From NCBI GenBank assembly GCA_039714655.1, contig JBDLIX010000005.1, positions 16,509 to 80,508 on the forward strand: DNA of 64,000 nucleotides, given 5' to 3'. A program made the translations under genes and the position numbers. Below are positions 48,542-62,973 of this stretch, in pieces. How positions within the stretch are numbered: position 1 is the stretch's first letter; every line of letters starts with the position of its first letter. The DNA is from Bacteroidota bacterium (lineage in GTDB: Bacteria > Bacteroidota > Bacteroidia > Bacteroidales > GCA-2748055). Below the pieces are notes generated by a model, which worked only from the letters and a program-made list of their open reading frames with translations, had not been told where the DNA came from and ran no database searches.

Positions 48542-49762
48542 TCAAGCTACGAAAGTAAACGCTTTGCCAACTTTTCCGGCCCTGCCTGTTCGCCCGATGC
48601 GATGTATATAACTGTCATGTGTCTGTGGCACCTGATAGTTTATGACATGGGAGACATCAGAAATGTCAAGTCCGCGGGATGCCACGTCTGTAGCTACCAA
48701 AACACGAACACGTCCCTGTTTAAAGGCTTTAAGTGCAGACTGCCTGGCATTCTGACTTTTATTACCATGGATTTGATCGGCAGGAATTCCAGCTCTGTTT
48801 AATTTGACACACAACTTGGTTACCCTGTGTTTGGTCTCCTCGAACAACAGAACTTTATTGAAATCCTCCCGGGATAACATCTCCTGAAGTACTTTGAATT
48901 TGTCGTCACCTGGTTTGAGTCTGACAATGTCCTGATCTATGTTATCGCCGGTTTGGTCACCACTGGTAACTTTTACGGTAATGTGATTCTTAAGTATGTG
49001 GTCGATCAGTGATTGTTGTTTTTTATCGAGTGTAGCCGAGAATAGCATGGTTTGATTGCGTTGATGCATACTCTCAATGATTCGATTCACATCTCGCACG
49101 AAACCCATATCGAGCATGCGGTCAAACTCATCCAGAACCAGTGTTTTGAACTTGCCAAGATCAAGCACCCTGCGATTGGTCAGGTCAAGCAACCTTCCAG
49201 GTGTTGCAATGACAACATGACTTGGCCTTCTAAGAGTCTGCATGTCCCGGTTGATGTTGGTACCCCCAATGAAACATGCACTATACAATCCCAGTCCCCT
49301 GGTCATGCTTTTGAATTCCTCCTCTACTTGCAGTGCCAATTCCCGGGTAGGGACCACTACCAGTGCATAAGGATTCACTCTTTTGTGAAGCAGCTGTTCG
49401 ATGATCGGCATCAGGTAAGCCCCGGTTTTCCCGGTTCCCGTTTGTGCAATGCCTAGAAGGTCCTTGCCTTGCATCAGTGCTTCCAGTGTCCTCTCCTGAA
49501 TTTCAGTAGGCCTTTCATATCCCTTTTTCTCAAGAGATTGTTTAAGTTTCGCACTAATGGGCATTTCCTTAATAAGGCGATCTGAACGAAACTCTTTTAC
49601 TTCTGTCTGGCTTGCCTCTTTCACCAAACGTGAAGGGTCAAGTGTTGACGGTTTTAAACCCGGTTTGGAAGAACGTCGATGGTTGTTCTGTGAACCGGAG
49701 TGCCTGTATTTAACTGGTGTTGAATTAGTTCTTTGTCTTTTCTTAAATGTTGTATTACTCAT
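48542..49762 (-). CDS. DEAD-box ATP-dependent RNA helicase with basic N-terminal extension
   Basis: Q-motif region, AQTGTGKT, PTRELA, DEFD (variant of DEAD), SAT, and HRIGRTGRAG. Start set at ATG 49762 (MSNTTFKKRQR). Confidence 0.85.
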   Translation of the reverse strand: MSNTTFKKRQRTNSTPVKYRHSGSQNNHRRSSKPGLKPSTLDPSRLVKEASQTEVKEFRSDRLIKEMPISAKLKQSLEKKGYERPTEIQERTLEALMQGKDLLGIAQTGTGKTGAYLMPIIEQLLHKRVNPYALVVVPTRELALQVEEEFKSMTRGLGLYSACFIGGTNINRDMQTLRRPSHVVIATPGRLLDLTNRRVLDLGKFKTLVLDEFDRMLDMGFVRDVNRIIESMHQRNQTMLFSATLDKKQQSLIDHILKNHITVKVTSGDQTGDNIDQDIVRLKPGDDKFKVLQEMLSREDFNKVLLFEETKHRVTKLCVKLNRAGIPADQIHGNKSQNARQSALKAFKQGRVRVLVATDVASRGLDISDVSHVINYQVPQTHDSYIHRIGRTGRAGKVGKAFTFVA

Positions 49763-49991
49763 ATAATAGATGTTTACACAGCCATTGATGGCTGAAATAT
49801 TAGTTATCAGCGAACTTTTAAGGATCGCTGGCCTTAGCTGAATCAGAAAAAAAAGAGAGGGGTCCCGATGGTGTTGGGAAATCTGCCTTGTTAGAAAGTC
49901 GGCTAAGAAATTTTGGCAAAGATAATCAAATTCCTTAGAACGTATGGTTTCGACTAATGTTTGGTTATTTTTGTGCATCTAAACATCATAA

Positions 49992-51236
49992 ATGAAGTTT
50001 GAAGAATACCGCATTGCCGAGGGAATTAAAAGAAGTATATCCAAGCTGGGATATAAAAAACCCACTGATATCCAGTTTAAATCGATTCCTCCCATCCTGA
50101 AAGGGGAGGATGTACTGGCCATTGCACAAACGGGTACAGGTAAAACTGCTGCGTATGCCATCCCTCTCCTCCACCTGTTGCAGGAACGAAAAATCAAAGG
50201 CCGGCCCGATGGAGTGAAGTGCCTGGTGATGGTGCCCACCCACGAGCTGGCACTGCAAACAGAAGCTGTTTTTAAAACGCTGGGCAAGCATACCCGAATC
50301 ACCTCTTTTTCGATTCATGGCGGGGTGGATCAGGATCCACAGATTGAACAGCTCAACAAGGGAGTGGATGTGTTGATAGCCACACCCGGAAGAATGTTCG
50401 ACCTGGTAAGTCAGGGTGTACTTCTGTTAAAGCGGGTGGAGATCCTGGTATTGGATGAGGCCGATCACATGCTTGACCTGGGGTTCATTAAAGATATTCG
50501 GGATCTGATGTATCACCTTCCAAGAAAGCGACAGACCCTTTTTTTCTCAGCCACCATCAATGAGAAGATTAAGAAGATTGCCTACTCCCTGGTTACAGAT
50601 GCCATTCGCATCCAGATATCACCCAAAGACCCTGTGGCCAGGAACATTGAACACGCTGTTGCTTTTATTGAGATGGATGACAAGCGCTTCTTCTTGGAAG
50701 ATGTGATAAAAAATGATGATGATAAGAAAATATTGGTTTTTGTAAGAACCAAAGTGAGGGCTGAACGGGTGAAAAAAGCGTTGGAAAGAGTCAATATCAT
50801 AGCCGGTAGCATACACAGTGACAAATTGCAGGAAGAGCGCGAACGAACCATGCAAAGTTTCAGAAATGGGGAGTTGAAAGTTTTGATTACCACCGATGTA
50901 AGTGCCAGGGGAATTGATATACCTGATGTGGAATACGTGGTAAATTATGATCTGCCCGAAACATCAGAACATTATGTTCACAGGGTGGGGAGGACAGGCC
51001 GCGGCAACCAGAAAGGGCAAGCAATCTCATTCTGCAGTTCAGAAGAGATGGAGTTGTTAGCCACCATTGAGAAGAACCTGGGAAAACCGGTTCACAGGGT
51101 AGAAATATCGAAAGGTGATTACCAGAACACCCTGGATATTTCTGAAGAATATAGCTCCGGCGACTGGCAATCGTTACTGAAAGAAGAAGAGGAGTATCAA
51201 AAAAGTCGCAAAAGGAAAAAACGGAAGTCTAAATGA
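49992..51236 (+). CDS. DEAD-box ATP-dependent RNA helicase (RhlE-like) with basic C-terminal tail
   Basis: AQTGTGKT, PTHELA, DEAD, SAT and HRVGRTGRG. C-terminal tail KSRKRKKRKSK. Confidence 0.9.
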   Translation: MKFEEYRIAEGIKRSISKLGYKKPTDIQFKSIPPILKGEDVLAIAQTGTGKTAAYAIPLLHLLQERKIKGRPDGVKCLVMVPTHELALQTEAVFKTLGKHTRITSFSIHGGVDQDPQIEQLNKGVDVLIATPGRMFDLVSQGVLLLKRVEILVLDEADHMLDLGFIKDIRDLMYHLPRKRQTLFFSATINEKIKKIAYSLVTDAIRIQISPKDPVARNIEHAVAFIEMDDKRFFLEDVIKNDDDKKILVFVRTKVRAERVKKALERVNIIAGSIHSDKLQEERERTMQSFRNGELKVLITTDVSARGIDIPDVEYVVNYDLPETSEHYVHRVGRTGRGNQKGQAISFCSSEEMELLATIEKNLGKPVHRVEISKGDYQNTLDISEEYSSGDWQSLLKEEEEYQKSRKRKKRKSK

Positions 51237-56805: not shown

Positions 56806-57468
56806 ATGAAAATTCAATTTTGCTCTGATCTGCACCTTGAATTTCCTGACAATAGAGAATTTTTGAATACTCATCCTATTCAGGTCAGGGGTGATATATT
56901 ATTATTGGCTGGTGATATAGTGCCTTTGGGAGAAATTGAGAGGCATGCTGATTTCTTCAACTATCTATCTGATAGTTTTCAGGCAATTTACTGGGTCCCC
57001 GGAAACCATGAGTATTATCACTATGATATAGCCGAGCTTTGGTCTAAGATAAGCGCTTTGAATCAAAGTGCTATACAAAATGGTCTGTCAGATTTTCGAG
57101 CGATAAAGCTAAACCATAAAGCTTTTTTGCCTTCACATTACAACAGATTGTATGAGGAGAGCGTCATTTTCCTGAAAGAGGAACTATCAGGTGATGAGTA
57201 TGCAAAACGGATTGTTGTCACCCATCATGTACCTACTTTTCTGAATTACCCCGAGAAATACAGAGGAGATGTTTTAAACGAAGCTTTTGCTACTGAATTG
57301 TATGATCTAATCGAAGAAACAGGCATTGATTACTGGATTTTCGGACATCACCATCAAAACATACCTGATTTTAAAATCGGAAAATCAACGTTGGTTACAA
57401 ATCAATTGGGATATGTGCTTTATAATGAGCATCAGCGATTTGATCTCAGTAGAACTATAGAATTGTGA
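56806..57468 (+). CDS. calcineurin-like metallophosphoesterase
   Basis: Motifs SDLHLE, AGDIV, GNHEYY, VTHHVP and GHHH. The start is 2 nt after the higA stop. Confidence 0.8.
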   Translation: MKIQFCSDLHLEFPDNREFLNTHPIQVRGDILLLAGDIVPLGEIERHADFFNYLSDSFQAIYWVPGNHEYYHYDIAELWSKISALNQSAIQNGLSDFRAIKLNHKAFLPSHYNRLYEESVIFLKEELSGDEYAKRIVVTHHVPTFLNYPEKYRGDVLNEAFATELYDLIEETGIDYWIFGHHHQNIPDFKIGKSTLVTNQLGYVLYNEHQRFDLSRTIEL

Positions 57469-57474
57469 TTTATG

Positions 57475-58224
57475 CTACGCTAAAATCAAATCAACTCCCG
57501 CTTTCTTCAACTCAATTTGAAACTTTGTACTTAAATCGCCGTCGGTGGCAATATGCTGAATATCTGCCGGATAACAAATATTAGTTAGCTCAGTTCTTCC
57601 GAATTTACTTGAATCGGACAGAACAAACAGATCCTTTGCTTTTTGAATGATGTAACTTGAAATTTCGGCCCTGAAAAGATCACGCAATGTAAATCCGGCA
57701 TCGGTCGAGTATCCGTCAATTCCAATGAAAGCTTTGTCAATGTTTATCTGATCGATACAGGTTTTGGTCATTTTCCCCACCAGAGTCTCACTATCGTGCT
57801 GGTAAATACCCCCGAGAATTATAATATTGGCTTGTTCATTTTTTCTGAATTGCCTGGCGATGTAGACGTTGGTGGTGATAATTGTCACTCTCTTAATCTT
57901 AAGAAGTTCACGTGCCAAAAGTGCATTTACGGAACCTGATTCAATCAGGATGGTTTCTCCTTCATTCACATAAGTAGAAACTTTCCTGGCAATCCTGAGT
58001 TTTCTTTCATAATTCATTCCCAAACGATTGGCCAGATCATCGGCATCTTTTAAAACCGCGCCTCCATGTACACGCTTTAAAAGACCTTCGGCTTCCAGAT
58101 CATTTAAATCCTGCCGAATGGTAACCGATGAAACATTCAATTTTTCAGAAAGCATTTTCACCGATGTCTGGTTGTCTTTACCCAGAATCTTCAGGATCGT
58201 ATTTTGTCTTTCATTGAGCATCAT
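57475..58224 (-). CDS. DeoR/GlpR-family transcriptional regulator
   Basis: N-terminal HTH (RQNTILKILGKDNQTSVKMLSEKLNVSSVTIRQDLNDLE) and a C-terminal DeoR sugar-binding domain. The start codon abuts the ROK stop codon. Confidence 0.9.
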   Translation of the reverse strand: MMLNERQNTILKILGKDNQTSVKMLSEKLNVSSVTIRQDLNDLEAEGLLKRVHGGAVLKDADDLANRLGMNYERKLRIARKVSTYVNEGETILIESGSVNALLARELLKIKRVTIITTNVYIARQFRKNEQANIIILGGIYQHDSETLVGKMTKTCIDQINIDKAFIGIDGYSTDAGFTLRDLFRAEISSYIIQKAKDLFVLSDSSKFGRTELTNICYPADIQHIATDGDLSTKFQIELKKAGVDLILA

Positions 58225-59184
58225 TTACTCCAGGGTTAAAGCAGCTGCGCCAATCACACCGGCATCACCAACGATTTTCGAAACAATTATTTCAATGGGA
58301 TCATAAATCATATCACGGGCCAAATCGTAAAAGGTGGATTTGATTTTGTCCAGATAGAAATCACCCCAATTGGTCAAACCTCCACCCAAAACTATGATGG
58401 GTGGATTTAAAGCCTGAAAGATATTGTATAATCCAATGCCCACATAATAGCCACTGTCCGATATAACTTCTTTGGAGACCGGATCATCCATATCAAGACC
58501 CTGTTTTAAAACCTCTCCACTCATTCTTGACATGATAAAATTAGAGGGTAGATTTAGTTTACTCTTTTTCCCTTCCTTCAATTTCTGTTCAAAAAGATAG
58601 GGGAGGGCCATTCCACAGGCGCACGCCATCAAACATCCCTTGTTTCCACAGGTACAGGTGAGCTCACTGCCAGGTTCTACAATGGTGTGACCAAACTCAC
58701 CGGCAGTACCGGTAGTCCCGCGATAAAGCTTTTTATTAATAATAATACCAGCTCCAATACCTGTGCTTACGGTCACAAATACCATGTCATCAAATCCTTG
58801 TCCTGCACCAAACTTATATTCCCCAAGTGCTTGAGCATTGGTGTCATTGTCCAGAATAACGGGGATGTTGAAATGGGACTGAATAGCTTCACGAAGCGGA
58901 AAGTTTTTAAATCCTTTCAGGTTGGAGGTGGTTAGAATGACTCCATCGCGAAAACGGATGTGCCCGGCACAACCCACTCCGATACCCGGAAGATCAGATT
59001 CACTCAGATCATTTCTTTGAAGCAACTCTTTGATATATTCAACGACCATATGAACCCGGCCTTCATCGCCTTTCTCCACATGGGCACAGGTATATATTTT
59101 GTCGAGAATCTCTCCTTTTTCGTCAACCAGGGCTATGGAACACTTGGTGCCTCCTATATCCACACCGCAAAGTATTTTACTCAT
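58225..59184 (-). CDS. ROK-family sugar kinase
   Basis: ATP motif GVDIGGTK. ROK zinc motif CTCGNKGC. No N-terminal wHTH, so a kinase rather than a repressor. 319 aa. Confidence 0.85.
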   Translation of the reverse strand: MSKILCGVDIGGTKCSIALVDEKGEILDKIYTCAHVEKGDEGRVHMVVEYIKELLQRNDLSESDLPGIGVGCAGHIRFRDGVILTTSNLKGFKNFPLREAIQSHFNIPVILDNDTNAQALGEYKFGAGQGFDDMVFVTVSTGIGAGIIINKKLYRGTTGTAGEFGHTIVEPGSELTCTCGNKGCLMACACGMALPYLFEQKLKEGKKSKLNLPSNFIMSRMSGEVLKQGLDMDDPVSKEVISDSGYYVGIGLYNIFQALNPPIIVLGGGLTNWGDFYLDKIKSTFYDLARDMIYDPIEIIVSKIVGDAGVIGAAALTLE

Positions 59185-59192
59185 GGGGCTAA

Positions 59193-61610
59193 CTAGCTTA
59201 ATGAATGCTCGGTTCTTGCTATAATATCATCCTGGGTATCGGGTGCCAAGGTTGTGAAAAATGCTGAATACCCAGCAATCCTGACCACCAGATCCCTGTA
59301 TTTCTCCGGATTCTTTTTCGCCTCAAGCAGTGTTTCCCTTGATACGATATTGTATTGGACATGCCAGCCTTTTAAATCTTCGAAAAAGGTGCGTATGATC
59401 GAAACCAGTTTTTGTTTGTCAGCATCTTTTTGAATGGTAGCCGGGGACAATTTCTGATTCAGAAGTACCCCACCCATGATTTTTCCGGTAGGCAACTTTG
59501 ACACCGATTTAAATACTGCTGTGGGGCCCAACAGGTCTGTTCCTGAAGAGGGTGAACTTCCCTCGGCAACCGGCGTAAACGCTTTTCTGCCGTCGGGTGT
59601 TGCCGGAACGACGGCTCCGCTGGGTACGTTTGCCGAAATACTTGAAGTCCCTGCATAATATTTGCATCCGATGGGACCCCGATTGTGTCGGGTGGTATGG
59701 TAATGATCAAGTTCTTCGATAAATTCCATGTAGGCATCCTTCAAAAGAAGATCCACATAATCATCATCATTCCCATATTTGGGTGCAAAATTCAACAGGA
59801 GCTGCCTTATTTTCTCACCTTCATCTCCTTGGAAATTATCTTCAATGGCCTCCAGAAGCTGCTCTTTTTTAATTTTTTCCTCTTCGAAAACAAGTTTTTT
59901 TATGGCTGCCAGTGAATTTCCCAGGTTTGCAATTCCAACCTGAAGGCCAGAGATAAAATCATATTTGGAACCACCCTCCTTGATGGTTTTACCCCGGGAA
60001 ATGCAGCTATCTACAAATGCTGAACACAAAATATCCGGAACATTTTCCTCAAGGGCTGTATCAACCGCCGTATCAATTTCAACTGTTTTCCGGGTATAGT
60101 ACTTAATTTGGTGTTGCCAGGCTGCAAACAGCTCCTCATATGTATTGAGTTCAGAAAAGTGACCAATACCTTTATGAAAGCGCTTACCCGTCTGCTTGTC
60201 AAGTCCATCATACAATGTGGCTAGAAACACCCGCATCAGGTTTAAAAAACTCATCCCGGTACAACGGTAACCCCATTTTCCAGGAACGGCTATCTCAATG
60301 CATCCTATGGCGGAATAATTAAATGCATCTTCCGTTTCAACGCCCAGTTCAATGAGACCCGGTATCACGATCTCATCGTTGTTAAAAGAGGGCATGCCAA
60401 ATCCTTTCTCAATGACCCGCATGCATTCCATCATGAAATCAGGATTGATGTTCTTATGGAATCTTACAGAGAGATTGGGTTGGGTGAGTCTCATTTTTCC
60501 TACCGAATCTAGAATGAGAAAACTCAGGTCATTGACTGCATCCACTCCCTCAGCTGTTTGTCCTCCTATGGTAACATTCTGATATAGAGGTCCGCCAGCA
60601 GAAAAACGGGTATGTGACCAGGGTCGGATTTTGTTAATGGAAAGCAATTTGACCCAAACATTCTCCAACAATTCAGAAGCAAACTCTTCCGAAATATCTC
60701 CAATAATTTTGTCATTCTGATAAAAAGGGAAGAGGTACTGATCCATTCTTCCCAGGGAGACCGAATGGCCATTGCTTTCGATTTGAAGAATAAGCTGTAC
60801 AAAATAGGTGAGTTGCAAAGCCTGATAGAAGTTTTGAGGAGGGCCTTCTGCAATGACTTCACAATTATTGGCAATCAACCGCAATTCCTCAGCTCTCTCC
60901 TTCTCCTGTTCTTTATTAATGAGCGAAAAAGCCAGATCTCTGTACCTGTGGATAAATGTCTGGAATGCCTCAATGGAAATGGTCAGCGCCCTGTAGAAGT
61001 GGTCTTTTTTCACCCCTTCCTGTTCGAACCTGCGAACCTGTTGATGAACCTCCCTGATCTCCTCAAGATATCCACCTAAACCAACCGACAATATTTTGTA
61101 AAAATCAACCGCAATATGAGCATCTCCGGAGGTGAGATTGCCTGTAGCTTTTATAATGGCTGAATCCTGCAGGTCACGTAATTCCTGCGACATAATTGCC
61201 CTGCCACGATCCCAAAGCACTTTTCCTTTCCACCATTTTGCAATTTCAATCAATTCCTTTTTATGGTCTTCTGTAATAAAAAAAGCATCTCCCGGACGCT
61301 TATCCAGCTCATCCATCTCCTCTGGCAGCCAATCCACGGCATATTCCGGAAAGATTGGGGCTGCCCTGTGTTGCGACGATTGGTTTCCCACAATGAGTTC
61401 GCCCTTATCAATATAAATGGTCATCTCATTGAGGGTCTTTTCAAGCGCCAGAGCCCGTTTTATGATGACCGGCTGCTCTTCATTATCCCGATAAACCTGG
61501 GTATAAAACCTGGCCCTTTCAGTGCAAACCGAAGGTCTTGAGGATAAAACCTTTTCACGTAAAACCGATATTCGTTCTGTTACCTCTCTCTTTTCCTTTT
61601 CAATGATCAT
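59193..61610 (-). CDS. glycyl radical enzyme, PFL2/dehydratase (eliminase) type, substrate unknown
   Basis: Glycyl radical motif VVRIAGYSAFF (Gly codon 59271..59273). Active-site GCIE (Cys 60300..60302, Glu 60294..60296). About 800 aa. The start is ATG 61610 or 61622. Confidence 0.9.
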   Translation of the reverse strand: MIIEKEKREVTERISVLREKVLSSRPSVCTERARFYTQVYRDNEEQPVIIKRALALEKTLNEMTIYIDKGELIVGNQSSQHRAAPIFPEYAVDWLPEEMDELDKRPGDAFFITEDHKKELIEIAKWWKGKVLWDRGRAIMSQELRDLQDSAIIKATGNLTSGDAHIAVDFYKILSVGLGGYLEEIREVHQQVRRFEQEGVKKDHFYRALTISIEAFQTFIHRYRDLAFSLINKEQEKERAEELRLIANNCEVIAEGPPQNFYQALQLTYFVQLILQIESNGHSVSLGRMDQYLFPFYQNDKIIGDISEEFASELLENVWVKLLSINKIRPWSHTRFSAGGPLYQNVTIGGQTAEGVDAVNDLSFLILDSVGKMRLTQPNLSVRFHKNINPDFMMECMRVIEKGFGMPSFNNDEIVIPGLIELGVETEDAFNYSAIGCIEIAVPGKWGYRCTGMSFLNLMRVFLATLYDGLDKQTGKRFHKGIGHFSELNTYEELFAAWQHQIKYYTRKTVEIDTAVDTALEENVPDILCSAFVDSCISRGKTIKEGGSKYDFISGLQVGIANLGNSLAAIKKLVFEEEKIKKEQLLEAIEDNFQGDEGEKIRQLLLNFAPKYGNDDDYVDLLLKDAYMEFIEELDHYHTTRHNRGPIGCKYYAGTSSISANVPSGAVVPATPDGRKAFTPVAEGSSPSSGTDLLGPTAVFKSVSKLPTGKIMGGVLLNQKLSPATIQKDADKQKLVSIIRTFFEDLKGWHVQYNIVSRETLLEAKKNPEKYRDLVVRIAGYSAFFTTLAPDTQDDIIARTEHSLS

Positions 61611-61611
61611 C

Positions 61612-62514
61612 TCATCCCCCAATTTTGGTTTGTAACTCTTTTAATTGTGCATATTGTACATAGGGTGCTAATTCAGTATCCCGAACTTGGCGGGTATCAC
61701 CAAAACTGTACTCCATACCCAACATGTTGTATTTTTCTATTCCCATTGTATGGTAAGGCAGAAAATGAACCTCATGGATATTTTCCAGGGAAGAGACAAA
61801 GTCAATCATCTGATTCATTTCATCTTCCGAATGATTAAAACCAGGAATCACCGGAATGCGTACGATCACACGGGCATTAGTATCTGCGAGTCTGGTTAAA
61901 TTATCCATCACCAGGGAGGCATCACCCTCCGTAAATATGGAGAATTTGCTCCTGTCGGTATGCTTTAGATCGGCCAGAAAAGTATCCACCAGACCAATGC
62001 ATCTGGCCACCTTATCCCAATTCACATGAAGTGATGTCTCCATATTTACATTGATGTTTCTGCTTTTAAGCTTCTTAAGCAAAGTGATTAGATCATCCCC
62101 TTGAGAAAGAGGTTCTCCACCTGAAAGAGTTACTCCACCATCTTCCCGGTAAAAAGGAACATCCTTTTCCACTTCAGATAAAATTTCATCAACGCTTGTG
62201 ATATCTCCGGATATGGTTAACGCTTTTGAGGCGCATAGATCCTTTAAGGTCTCTGGCTCAGTCAGAAGCTTGCGATTAATTTGAATTCCATTGTTCTCCA
62301 TTGGGGTAATGGCTTTCCCATCTGCTAAAAGACAATCTCCAAAGTTCCTGCAAATCTTTTGGTCATACATGACGCTGTAGCCGAAAGATTGACTTTCAGG
62401 ATTACTGCACCATTGGCAACGAAGGGGACACCCCTTGTAGAAGATAATGGTTCGGATGCCATCTCCGTCGTGGGTAGAGAATCGCTGAATATTGAATATC
62501 ATTTCGATTTGCAA
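61612..62514 (-). CDS. glycyl-radical enzyme activating protein (radical SAM)
   Basis: FSTHDGDGIRTIIFYKGCPLRCQWCSNPE (CxxxCxxC) and the GGEP motif. Lies immediately upstream of the GRE. The region where ferredoxin-like Cys clusters normally sit contains only 3 Cys. Confidence 0.9.
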   Translation of the reverse strand: MQIEMIFNIQRFSTHDGDGIRTIIFYKGCPLRCQWCSNPESQSFGYSVMYDQKICRNFGDCLLADGKAITPMENNGIQINRKLLTEPETLKDLCASKALTISGDITSVDEILSEVEKDVPFYREDGGVTLSGGEPLSQGDDLITLLKKLKSRNINVNMETSLHVNWDKVARCIGLVDTFLADLKHTDRSKFSIFTEGDASLVMDNLTRLADTNARVIVRIPVIPGFNHSEDEMNQMIDFVSSLENIHEVHFLPYHTMGIEKYNMLGMEYSFGDTRQVRDTELAPYVQYAQLKELQTKIGG

Positions 62515-62549
62515 CTGAGTTCGCAGTAGACAAATATAATCTATTTTCG

Positions 62550-62667: not shown

Positions 62668-62973
62668 ATGACAAAGCTTATTATCATTACCATTCTTGTT
62701 CTTGTTTTGAATATCCCATTCGGGTATTGGAGAGCCAATGTTAAGCAGTTTTCCACACAATGGTTCCTGGCCATTCACATACCAGTACCCTTTATCATCG
62801 CTTTAAGGTTTCTTACCGGGATCGGATTCAGCTGGTATACCTACCTTTTCCTCGTGGGCGGATTTTTCCTGGGACAAAAATGTGGATCCTGGCTTAAAAA
62901 CCGGGTTCACATGCGCTGCCACCAGGAGACTTCATGCCTGGTGATGGATATAATACGTTGTGCGCGCGCTTAA
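62668..62973 (+). CDS. small hypothetical membrane protein (about 3 TM)
   Basis: 101-aa ORF with three hydrophobic segments. No family recognised, and it could be spurious. Confidence 0.35.
   Translation: MTKLIIITILVLVLNIPFGYWRANVKQFSTQWFLAIHIPVPFIIALRFLTGIGFSWYTYLFLVGGFFLGQKCGSWLKNRVHMRCHQETSCLVMDIIRCARA

Follow-up and report, generated by a model that had tools for sequence, protein, structure and literature searches.

A YbiW-type glycyl radical enzyme cassette with its own ROK kinase and DeoR regulator: a probable module for 1,5-anhydroglucitol use in Bacteroidales

Our analysis of a 64,000-nucleotide stretch of DNA (hereafter the window) from contig JBDLIX010000005.1 of a Bacteroidota bacterium (assembly GCA_039714655.1) centers on a four-gene cassette encoding a radical-SAM activase, a glycyl radical enzyme (GRE), a ROK-family sugar kinase, and a DeoR-family regulator. 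The operon is a kinase-fed variant of the Escherichia coli anhydroglycolysis loci, and its enzyme chemistry is not new: judged from its sequence, the GRE clearly corresponds to E. coli YbiW and is a new member of the YbiW family that uses already known chemistry. At a probability of roughly 0.7, we read the cassette as a self-contained, autoregulated module with which Prolixibacteraceae-type Bacteroidota would use 1,5-anhydro-D-glucitol (AG), or some closely similar 1,5-anhydrohexitol, under anaerobic conditions.

The glycyl radical enzyme is a YbiW counterpart

The GRE matches TIGR01774 ('PFL2/glycerol dehydratase family') with 1005 bits against a cut-off of 678, and is composed of a PFL-like domain (PF02901, 667 bits) and a Gly_radical domain (PF01228, 112 bits). 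By BLASTP it is 57.6% identical to E. coli YbiW over 786 aa, full length; its active-site Cys441 and Glu443, both within GCIE, align with YbiW residues 441 and 443, and the glycyl residue lies in RIAGYS. Comparison with all solved structures placed 6xs4 (1012 bits), an enterobacterial homolog of YbiW, and YbiW itself (8id7, 8yjn; 1003 bits, E 9e-301) at the top, followed by glycerol dehydratase (636 bits), a 2025–26 'glycyl radical protein' (560), and propanediol dehydratase (541), with PflD (524), CutC (about 420–440), HypD (410), and pyruvate formate-lyase (PFL; 139) lowest. Glycerol and propanediol dehydratase were compared as solved structures, NCBIfam giving no equivalog for either. The GRE does not reach the PflD equivalog NF007437 (618 bits; cut-off 1109) and lies far under the cut-offs of the NCBIfam eliminase equivalogs for HypD, CutC, HpsG, and HpfG.

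The same affinity is apparent in a multiple alignment of the window GRE, 12 orthologs, YbiW, PflD, and a PflD-like GRE from the same genome, in which the window GRE shares 57% identity with YbiW and 39% with PflD, and YbiW and PflD share 39% with each other. Across the 456 columns invariant in the 13 Bacteroidota GREs, 358 hold the YbiW residue and 228 the PflD residue. The barrel-finger motifs are all YbiW-like: TSGDAH, ESNGHSVS, PLYQNVTIGGQ, TQPNLSVR, GFGMPxFNNDE, GCIExAVxGKWGYRCTGMSF, SGLQVGIANLGNS, YYAGTSSISANVP, and GGVLLNQKL. Among the three GREs of this genome, the window GRE is also the best match to YbiW.

To compare substrate pockets, the GRE was aligned with glycerol dehydratase (1r8w) using HMMER, and the mapped positions are accordingly those of glycerol dehydratase, not the AG6P (1,5-anhydroglucitol-6-phosphate) contacts of 8id7. 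At the eight pocket-homologous positions the GRE carries H169, H286, S287, Y347, C441, E443, G456, and S660; YbiW is identical at all eight, and PflD departs from both at four, with S, G, D, and Y. Within the mapped set, only His164 and Glu435 of glycerol dehydratase are confirmed in a paper; His281, Ser282, Tyr339, Cys433, Asp447, and Tyr640 are what we take to be the pocket positions of the 2004 structure paper. The equivalents of Asp447 and Tyr640 in the GRE are Gly and Ser.

According to the passages on these enzymes in PMC13450708 (section 5.7) and PMC12441222, YbiW, characterized in 2024, is an AG6P C-O lyase whose product is 1-deoxyfructose-6-phosphate (DF6P): the Cys441 thiyl radical takes a hydrogen from C2, Glu443 deprotonates the C2 hydroxyl, and the ring opens to an alpha-keto radical. 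The same passages describe the cleavage of DF6P by E. coli FsaA or FsaB into glyceraldehyde-3-phosphate and hydroxyacetone, and class YbiW as a GRE isomerase, YbiW-YbiY together with FsaA forming the 'anhydroglycolysis' of Ma et al. 2024 (J Am Chem Soc, doi 10.1021/jacs.4c07718). YbiW is counted as an isomerase and not an eliminase because the ring-opened product is an isomer of the substrate, without net elimination.

These results recast the original prediction, an earlier note on this DNA that had presented the GRE as an uncharacterized eliminase or dehydratase of new specificity. The enzyme groups tightly with YbiW (57.6% identity; 1003 bits versus 636 for glycerol dehydratase; the same pocket-homologous residues), so that neither 'uncharacterized' nor 'new' is supported, and the eliminase label gives way to the isomerase class in which YbiW is now placed. 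Two of its narrower statements hold. The GRE is of the Cys-x-Glu type (GCIE), and PFL is ruled out by the single Cys and a score of 152 bits against the TIGR01255 cut-off of 994. The kind of substrate it proposed, namely a sugar, deoxy-sugar, or polyol that might be phosphorylated, matches the type used by YbiW, the closest characterized enzyme. A microcompartment-associated diol or choline enzyme was also considered and is ruled out by a genome without bacterial microcompartment (BMC) genes.

A gluco-type specificity, that of YbiW, is the best reading of these comparisons, though not a proven one. Several observations weigh against it, and against the pathway built upon it: 42% of the GRE residues are unlike those of YbiW; clade-specific substitutions relative to YbiW lie by the Cys loop (Thr444 to Ile, Gly447 to Pro); the NKIR(SG)SH loop of YbiW has PW in place of SG in this GRE; the pocket comparison rests on glycerol dehydratase positions and not on the AG6P contacts of YbiW itself; no transporter is linked to the cassette; and the FsaA/FsaB and GldA partners are without homologs, leaving the pathway not closed in this assembly.

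The GRE might instead apply the same chemistry to a different 1,5-anhydro- or deoxy-hexitol phosphate—1,5-anhydromannitol-6-phosphate, for instance, or a galacto or other epimer—with the ROK kinase specific for that sugar. Room for this reading is left by an identity to YbiW of just 58% and by several substitutions close to the Cys loop; the YbiW/PflD pair shows a C2 epimer switch within the family at 39% identity; and the missing aldolase partner could mean a different product. We nevertheless regard it as unlikely, given that the GRE sides with YbiW at each of the four pocket-homologous positions separating YbiW from PflD, that it scores so far below the PflD equivalog (618 versus 1109 bits), and that a separate PflD-like GRE, on another contig of the assembly (C46; 44% identical to PflD), would cover the manno branch. 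Very improbable, in our estimate, is a 1,2-eliminase or dehydratase of never-characterized specificity, removing water or another leaving group from a sugar or polyol. The Cys-x-Glu loop is common to eliminases and the equivalents of glycerol dehydratase His164 and His281/Ser282 are present in the GRE; yet the isomerase YbiW is its nearest characterized enzyme by a wide margin, where glycerol dehydratase has its Asp447 loop the GRE has the YbiW-specific WGYRCTGMSF, and the equivalog models of the known eliminases are all missed by far.

The ROK kinase as a candidate 1,5-anhydroglucitol 6-kinase

The kinase matches PF00480 with 229 bits and contains only ROK and ASKHA domains. A role as a ROK-type repressor was considered and is ruled out by the absence of a helix-turn-helix (HTH) domain. 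Conserved features include DxGxT (DIGGTK), the Asn-Asp catalytic pair (LDNDTN), ExGH (GEFGH), and three zinc cysteines. Its best structural matches are glucokinases, with N-acetylmannosamine kinase also aligned, and its score of 224.7 bits does not reach the cut-off of the ROK-glucokinase subfamily TIGR00744 (260.35).

The ROK signature is CxCGxxGCx(E/D), and its Glu (Glu588 in hMNK, Glu175 in EcNanK) is listed among the sugar-coordinating residues (PMC5458393). In the motif CTCGNKGCLM found here, a Met occupies this position, as it does in 13 of 13 orthologs including the window protein; the four solved homologs, together with a ROK paralog encoded on contig C7 of the same genome, keep the Glu. 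The signature Glu presumably contacts the C1/C2 side of the sugar, and the loss of this hydrogen-bond acceptor would accord with a substrate in which the anomeric hydroxyl is missing.

We infer that the kinase is a 1,5-anhydroglucitol 6-kinase standing in for the phosphotransferase system (PTS). Consistent with a kinase replacing the PTS, tblastn found no homolog of E. coli FrwC, FrwB, or FrwD in the genome (other EIIC families were not searched). The E. coli PtsA query returned just a weak match to a phosphoenolpyruvate-utilizing domain.

Conservation and phyletic distribution of the cassette

A scan of species-representative genomes recovered 20 loci with GREs 78–87% identical to the window GRE, all belonging to the Bacteroidales as delimited by GTDB (metagenome-assembled genomes of Prolixibacteraceae, Mariniphaga, Draconibacterium, and Tangfeifania). 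Each of these 20 genomes encodes one ortholog of the ROK kinase, at 65–86% identity. In 19 of them it lies directly downstream of the GRE, whose coordinates could be derived in those 19; in the remaining genome (G016, locus L017), the contig stops within the GRE and the kinase sits on another contig, making the adjacency unreadable. Public records name the orthologs 'formate C-acetyltransferase' (GRE) and 'glucokinase/ROK family protein' (kinase).

Clustering of the ORFs (open reading frames) from 12 of these loci, each spanning 15–20 kb, revealed an invariant activase-GRE-ROK-DeoR order in all 12, and the same four genes are carried by Maribellus comscasis, a cultured organism with a closed genome (CP046401.1; locus L035, record positions 161068–180027, with the cassette at about 166.7–171.8 kb). 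Because the same four genes recur in the same order in the 12 loci and in M. comscasis, the arrangement is not due to chance. The tie between the GRE and its ROK and DeoR partners, on which the original prediction had hinged, is thus upheld, with both co-conserved in every relative read.

The flanks of the cassette, in contrast to its interior, are unrelated between loci and include GH2, GH20, alpha-glucan phosphorylase, gyrase, and transporter genes. The cassette is also rare and patchily distributed: even sampling found it in 1 of 401 genomes across the phylum and in 3 of 201 across the order, and one genome of the same genus is without it. A search of a same-genus genome (G543) for an empty insertion site, using 2.2 kb of flanking DNA, gave no match. 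Overall, the cassette behaves as a compact accessory module.

These distributions bear on the suggestion that the kinase is an ordinary glucokinase or sensor merely co-located with a GRE whose substrate is phosphorylated elsewhere, a reading that accords with the names in public records and the glucokinases among the top structural matches, and that we find very improbable in view of its position directly downstream of the GRE in the 19 of 20 genomes with derivable GRE coordinates while the flanks vary, its score under the glucokinase subfamily cut-off, its lack of a DNA-binding domain, and the signature Glu/Asp missing from 13 of 13 orthologs yet kept by the paralog in the same genome.

Among the flanking genes, an 848-aa alpha-glucan phosphorylase-like gene adjoins the activase in two loci, L031 (2934–5480) and L032 (cluster c20), which hints at a link of the cassette to alpha-glucan breakdown.

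Gene layout and the activase

The ORF listing of the window places the four genes head to tail on the minus strand (Table 1). One nucleotide separates the activase stop codon (61612–61614) from the GRE ATG (61610), and 8 nt separate the GRE stop (59193) from the ROK ATG (59184); the ROK stop (58225) directly abuts the DeoR ATG (58224), with 0 nt between them. The motifs RIAGYS, GCIE, DIGGTK, and CTCGNKGC are all found in the translations. The ORF listing and family scans therefore bear out the four packed, co-directional genes and the motifs that had been described for this region. Equally sound was the report that the context lacks microcompartment, dehydrogenase, sulfite, trimethylamine, and proline-pathway genes: no BMC shell gene was found in the whole genome, and none of the other four kinds was found among the genes within ~13 kb of the cassette.

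Table 1. Genes and upstream elements of the cassette, in window positions
Feature	Position	Strand	Remarks
GRE activating enzyme (radical SAM, YbiY-like)	61612..62502	-	296 aa from the conserved ATG; listed ORF 61612-62514 from TTG
GRE, YbiW-type (putative AG6P C-O lyase/isomerase)	59193..61610	-	805 aa from ATG; listed ORF 59193-61622 from TTG
ROK-family sugar kinase without HTH domain (putative 1,5-anhydroglucitol 6-kinase)	58225..59184	-	319 aa; PF00480
DeoR-family regulator (HTH_DeoR and DeoRC sugar-phosphate sensor domain), putative cassette repressor	57475..58224	-	249 aa; last gene in 13/13 cassettes and in M. comscasis
Operator-like palindrome 1, TTTTAAATGAAA	62567..62578	-	Distal half of the bipartite site; shared upstream of 13 cassettes
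Operator-like palindrome 2, TTTCATTCGAAA	62545..62556	-	22 bp from palindrome 1; putative DeoR site; consensus in 13 loci
Promoter-like box, TATATTTG	62531..62538	-	Matches the Bacteroidota -7 element TAnnTTTG; 6 nt after palindrome 2, 28 nt ahead of the ATG

Two of the listed ORFs open on a TTG upstream of a more plausible start. For the activase, alignment with E. coli YbiY and 12 orthologs revealed a conserved N-terminus, MIFNIQRF, that places the ATG at 62502; for the GRE, translation probably starts at the ATG at 61610, giving 805 aa. The activase matches TIGR02494 (308 bits; cut-off 174), is 41.9% identical to E. coli YbiY by BLASTP, and carries the radical-SAM motif CPLRCQWC (CX3CX2C). 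The insert that follows this motif holds three cysteines only (residues 51, 57, and 90, counted from MIFN), kept in 13 of 13 orthologs; the YbiY insert has six.

A conserved putative operator and promoter upstream of the cassette

The regulator combines an HTH_DeoR domain (PF08220, 59.5 bits) with a DeoRC domain (PF00455, 147.5 bits) and reaches no equivalog model. The sensor domains of DeoR-family proteins typically bind phosphorylated sugars.

The upstream regions of 13 cassettes align only across ~60 nt, and this short block holds a pair of imperfect 12-bp palindromes with the consensus TTTyAwwyGAAA-N10-TTTCATnnGAAA over the 13 loci. Next to them, most aligned loci have a box resembling TAnnTTTG, the consensus of the Bacteroidota -7 promoter element, at the equivalent place. 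A weight matrix built from the 13 operator sites scored 48 bits at the cassette in a scan of the 5.75-Mb genome. The same genome-wide scan, which could have brought a transporter or an aldolase into the regulon, gave no further operator site, the best scores (≤21 bits) being at chance level. A separate scan for sigma-70 promoters and terminators remained at the level of shuffled sequence, the sigma-70 model being one that does not apply to Bacteroidota promoters.

Because the junctions measure 1, 8, and 0 nt and a single conserved promoter region precedes them, co-transcription of the four genes is suggested. The simplest reading of the upstream region is that the cassette is autoregulated, with DeoR acting on the paired palindromes at the promoter and being relieved by a sugar phosphate.

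Beyond the promoter, a 101-aa hydrophobic ORF without a family match (window 62668–62973, plus strand) diverges from the cassette, and its DNA is kept upstream in the closest relative (L022).

A proposed pathway and its downstream steps

In the pathway we propose, AG would enter the cell through an unlinked transporter and be phosphorylated at O6 by the ROK kinase, which would yield AG6P and take over the role of the PTS in E. coli. The activase, going by its family, would introduce the glycyl radical into RIAGYS. By homology with the published mechanism of YbiW, the Cys441 thiyl radical of the GRE would then abstract the hydrogen from C2 of AG6P, Glu443 would deprotonate the C2 hydroxyl, the ring C1–O5 bond would break, and the resulting alpha-keto radical would regain a hydrogen to give DF6P. 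Cleavage of DF6P to glyceraldehyde-3-phosphate and hydroxyacetone would take place elsewhere, and DeoR, bound to the paired palindromes, would be released by AG6P or DF6P.

The cleavage step is the least settled part of this scheme. The TAL/FSA family (PF00923) is absent from this assembly, which is 97.7% complete, in a search that was positive for control genomes, and tblastn gave no match here for FsaA, FsaB, GldA, or YbiV; the TAL/FSA absence may be real or may reflect an assembly gap. A TAL_FSA homolog is present, though unlinked, in 9 of the 20 related genomes and in M. comscasis (at 4.61 Mb). Since such homologs occur only unlinked in the relatives, the module in no case includes the aldolase. 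The genome encodes two class I aldolases of the DeoC family (contig C11, 34768–35361, and contig C82, 12879–13505), which are no more than candidates for DF6P cleavage, as is its class II FBP aldolase.

A bolder proposal can be put forward tentatively, with the odds somewhat against it as a whole: that the cassette is a PTS-independent, horizontally mobile entry into anhydroglycolysis, that its ROK kinase founds a class of 1,5-anhydrohexitol 6-kinases marked by the Met, and that genomes without FSA or transaldolase use an undescribed DF6P aldolase or route.

The assignment takes a supposedly orphan GRE off the list of unknown chemistries, and would carry the anhydroglycolysis pathway of 2024 beyond gut Enterobacteria, which have a PTS, into marine and sediment Bacteroidota, which are PTS-poor; there, speculatively, glucan lyases acting on alpha-glucans of algae or bacteria could supply 1,5-anhydro-sugars. 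It also singles out the kinase as a candidate specialized for 1,5-anhydroglucitol and recognizable by the short motif GCxM, and the defined operator with its repressor as a possible AG-responsive switch. The cassette of M. comscasis makes these predictions testable in a cultured organism with a closed genome.

Neighboring genes and further glycyl radical enzymes in the genome

Within ~13 kb, the neighbors of the cassette comprise RNA helicases, a TonB-type receptor, a LytTR response regulator, a metallophosphoesterase, and a glycosyltransferase. The metallophosphoesterase gene (window 56806–57468, plus strand) converges on the DeoR gene with 6 nt between the two stop codons, leaving no space for a terminator hairpin; a homolog lies near the cassette in one other locus only (L022). 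The two DEAD-box RNA helicase genes (48542–49978, minus strand; 49992–51236, plus strand) stand back to back with 13 nt between them.

The genome encodes two further GREs. One, on contig C46 (8436–10781, plus strand), is 44% identical to E. coli PflD, carries GCVE and RVAGYT, and is without an adjacent activase; its flanks hold an amidohydrolase_2 gene, two Gfo/Idh/MocA oxidoreductases, a xylose-isomerase-like TIM barrel, a short-chain dehydrogenase/reductase, and an iron-containing alcohol dehydrogenase. This region may represent a 1,5-anhydrofructose/anhydromannitol branch, which would need an activase encoded elsewhere. The other, on contig C54 (19801–23007, minus strand), comprises a 792-aa GRE with GCVESG and RVAGYS and a short 266-aa activase without the insert, neighbored by an enolase-superfamily dipeptide-epimerase-like gene, an NlpC/P60 peptidase, and a SusC/SusD pair.

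Comparison with known systems

The closest known system is YbiW-YbiY of E. coli. Its GRE is 57.6% identical to the one described here, Cys441 and Glu443 are numbered alike in both, the pocket-homologous residues are the same, and its activase, 41.9% identical, is likewise encoded directly upstream of the GRE (ybiY-ybiW). The two systems differ in how the substrate is phosphorylated and in what accompanies the enzyme: E. coli relies on PTS phosphorylation and its ybiW locus includes the aldolase gene fsaA and the phosphatase gene ybiV, whereas the present operon incorporates a ROK kinase and a DeoR regulator, and its locus has no aldolase. This assembly, moreover, is without a homolog of the FSA/TAL family, the Frw-type PTS, GldA, or YbiV, and the activase insert has 3 Cys against the 6 of YbiY.

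E. coli PflD-PflC, a 1,5-anhydromannitol-6-phosphate C-O lyase system whose locus includes PTS genes (frwCBD), fsaB, and gldA, shares with the present GRE its enzyme class and CxE loop; the PflD product is also DF6P and its substrate also a sugar 6-phosphate. The two GREs are, however, only 39% identical and differ at 4 of the 8 pocket-homologous positions, where the present GRE follows YbiW, and the PflD equivalog is not reached.

The B12-independent glycerol dehydratase of Clostridium butyricum (1r8w/1r9d) and the other GRE 1,2-eliminases (CutC, HypD, propanediol dehydratase, IslA, HpsG) have the fold, glycyl motif, and CxE loop in common with this GRE, along with the equivalents of His164 and His281/Ser282. 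In contrast, their scores do not exceed 636 bits where YbiW reaches 1003, this GRE has other residues in place of Tyr640 and the Asp447 loop of glycerol dehydratase, and the genome has no microcompartment genes.

Finally, the kinase shares with ROK glucokinases (e.g., Streptomyces griseus GlkA, 3vgk) and N-acetylmannosamine kinases the ASKHA/ROK fold, DxGxT, the catalytic Asp, ExGH, and the Cys3-His zinc site. It differs from them in having Met for the sugar-coordinating Glu/Asp after the third zinc Cys, in scoring below the TIGR00744 cut-off, and in being encoded beside a YbiW-type GRE.

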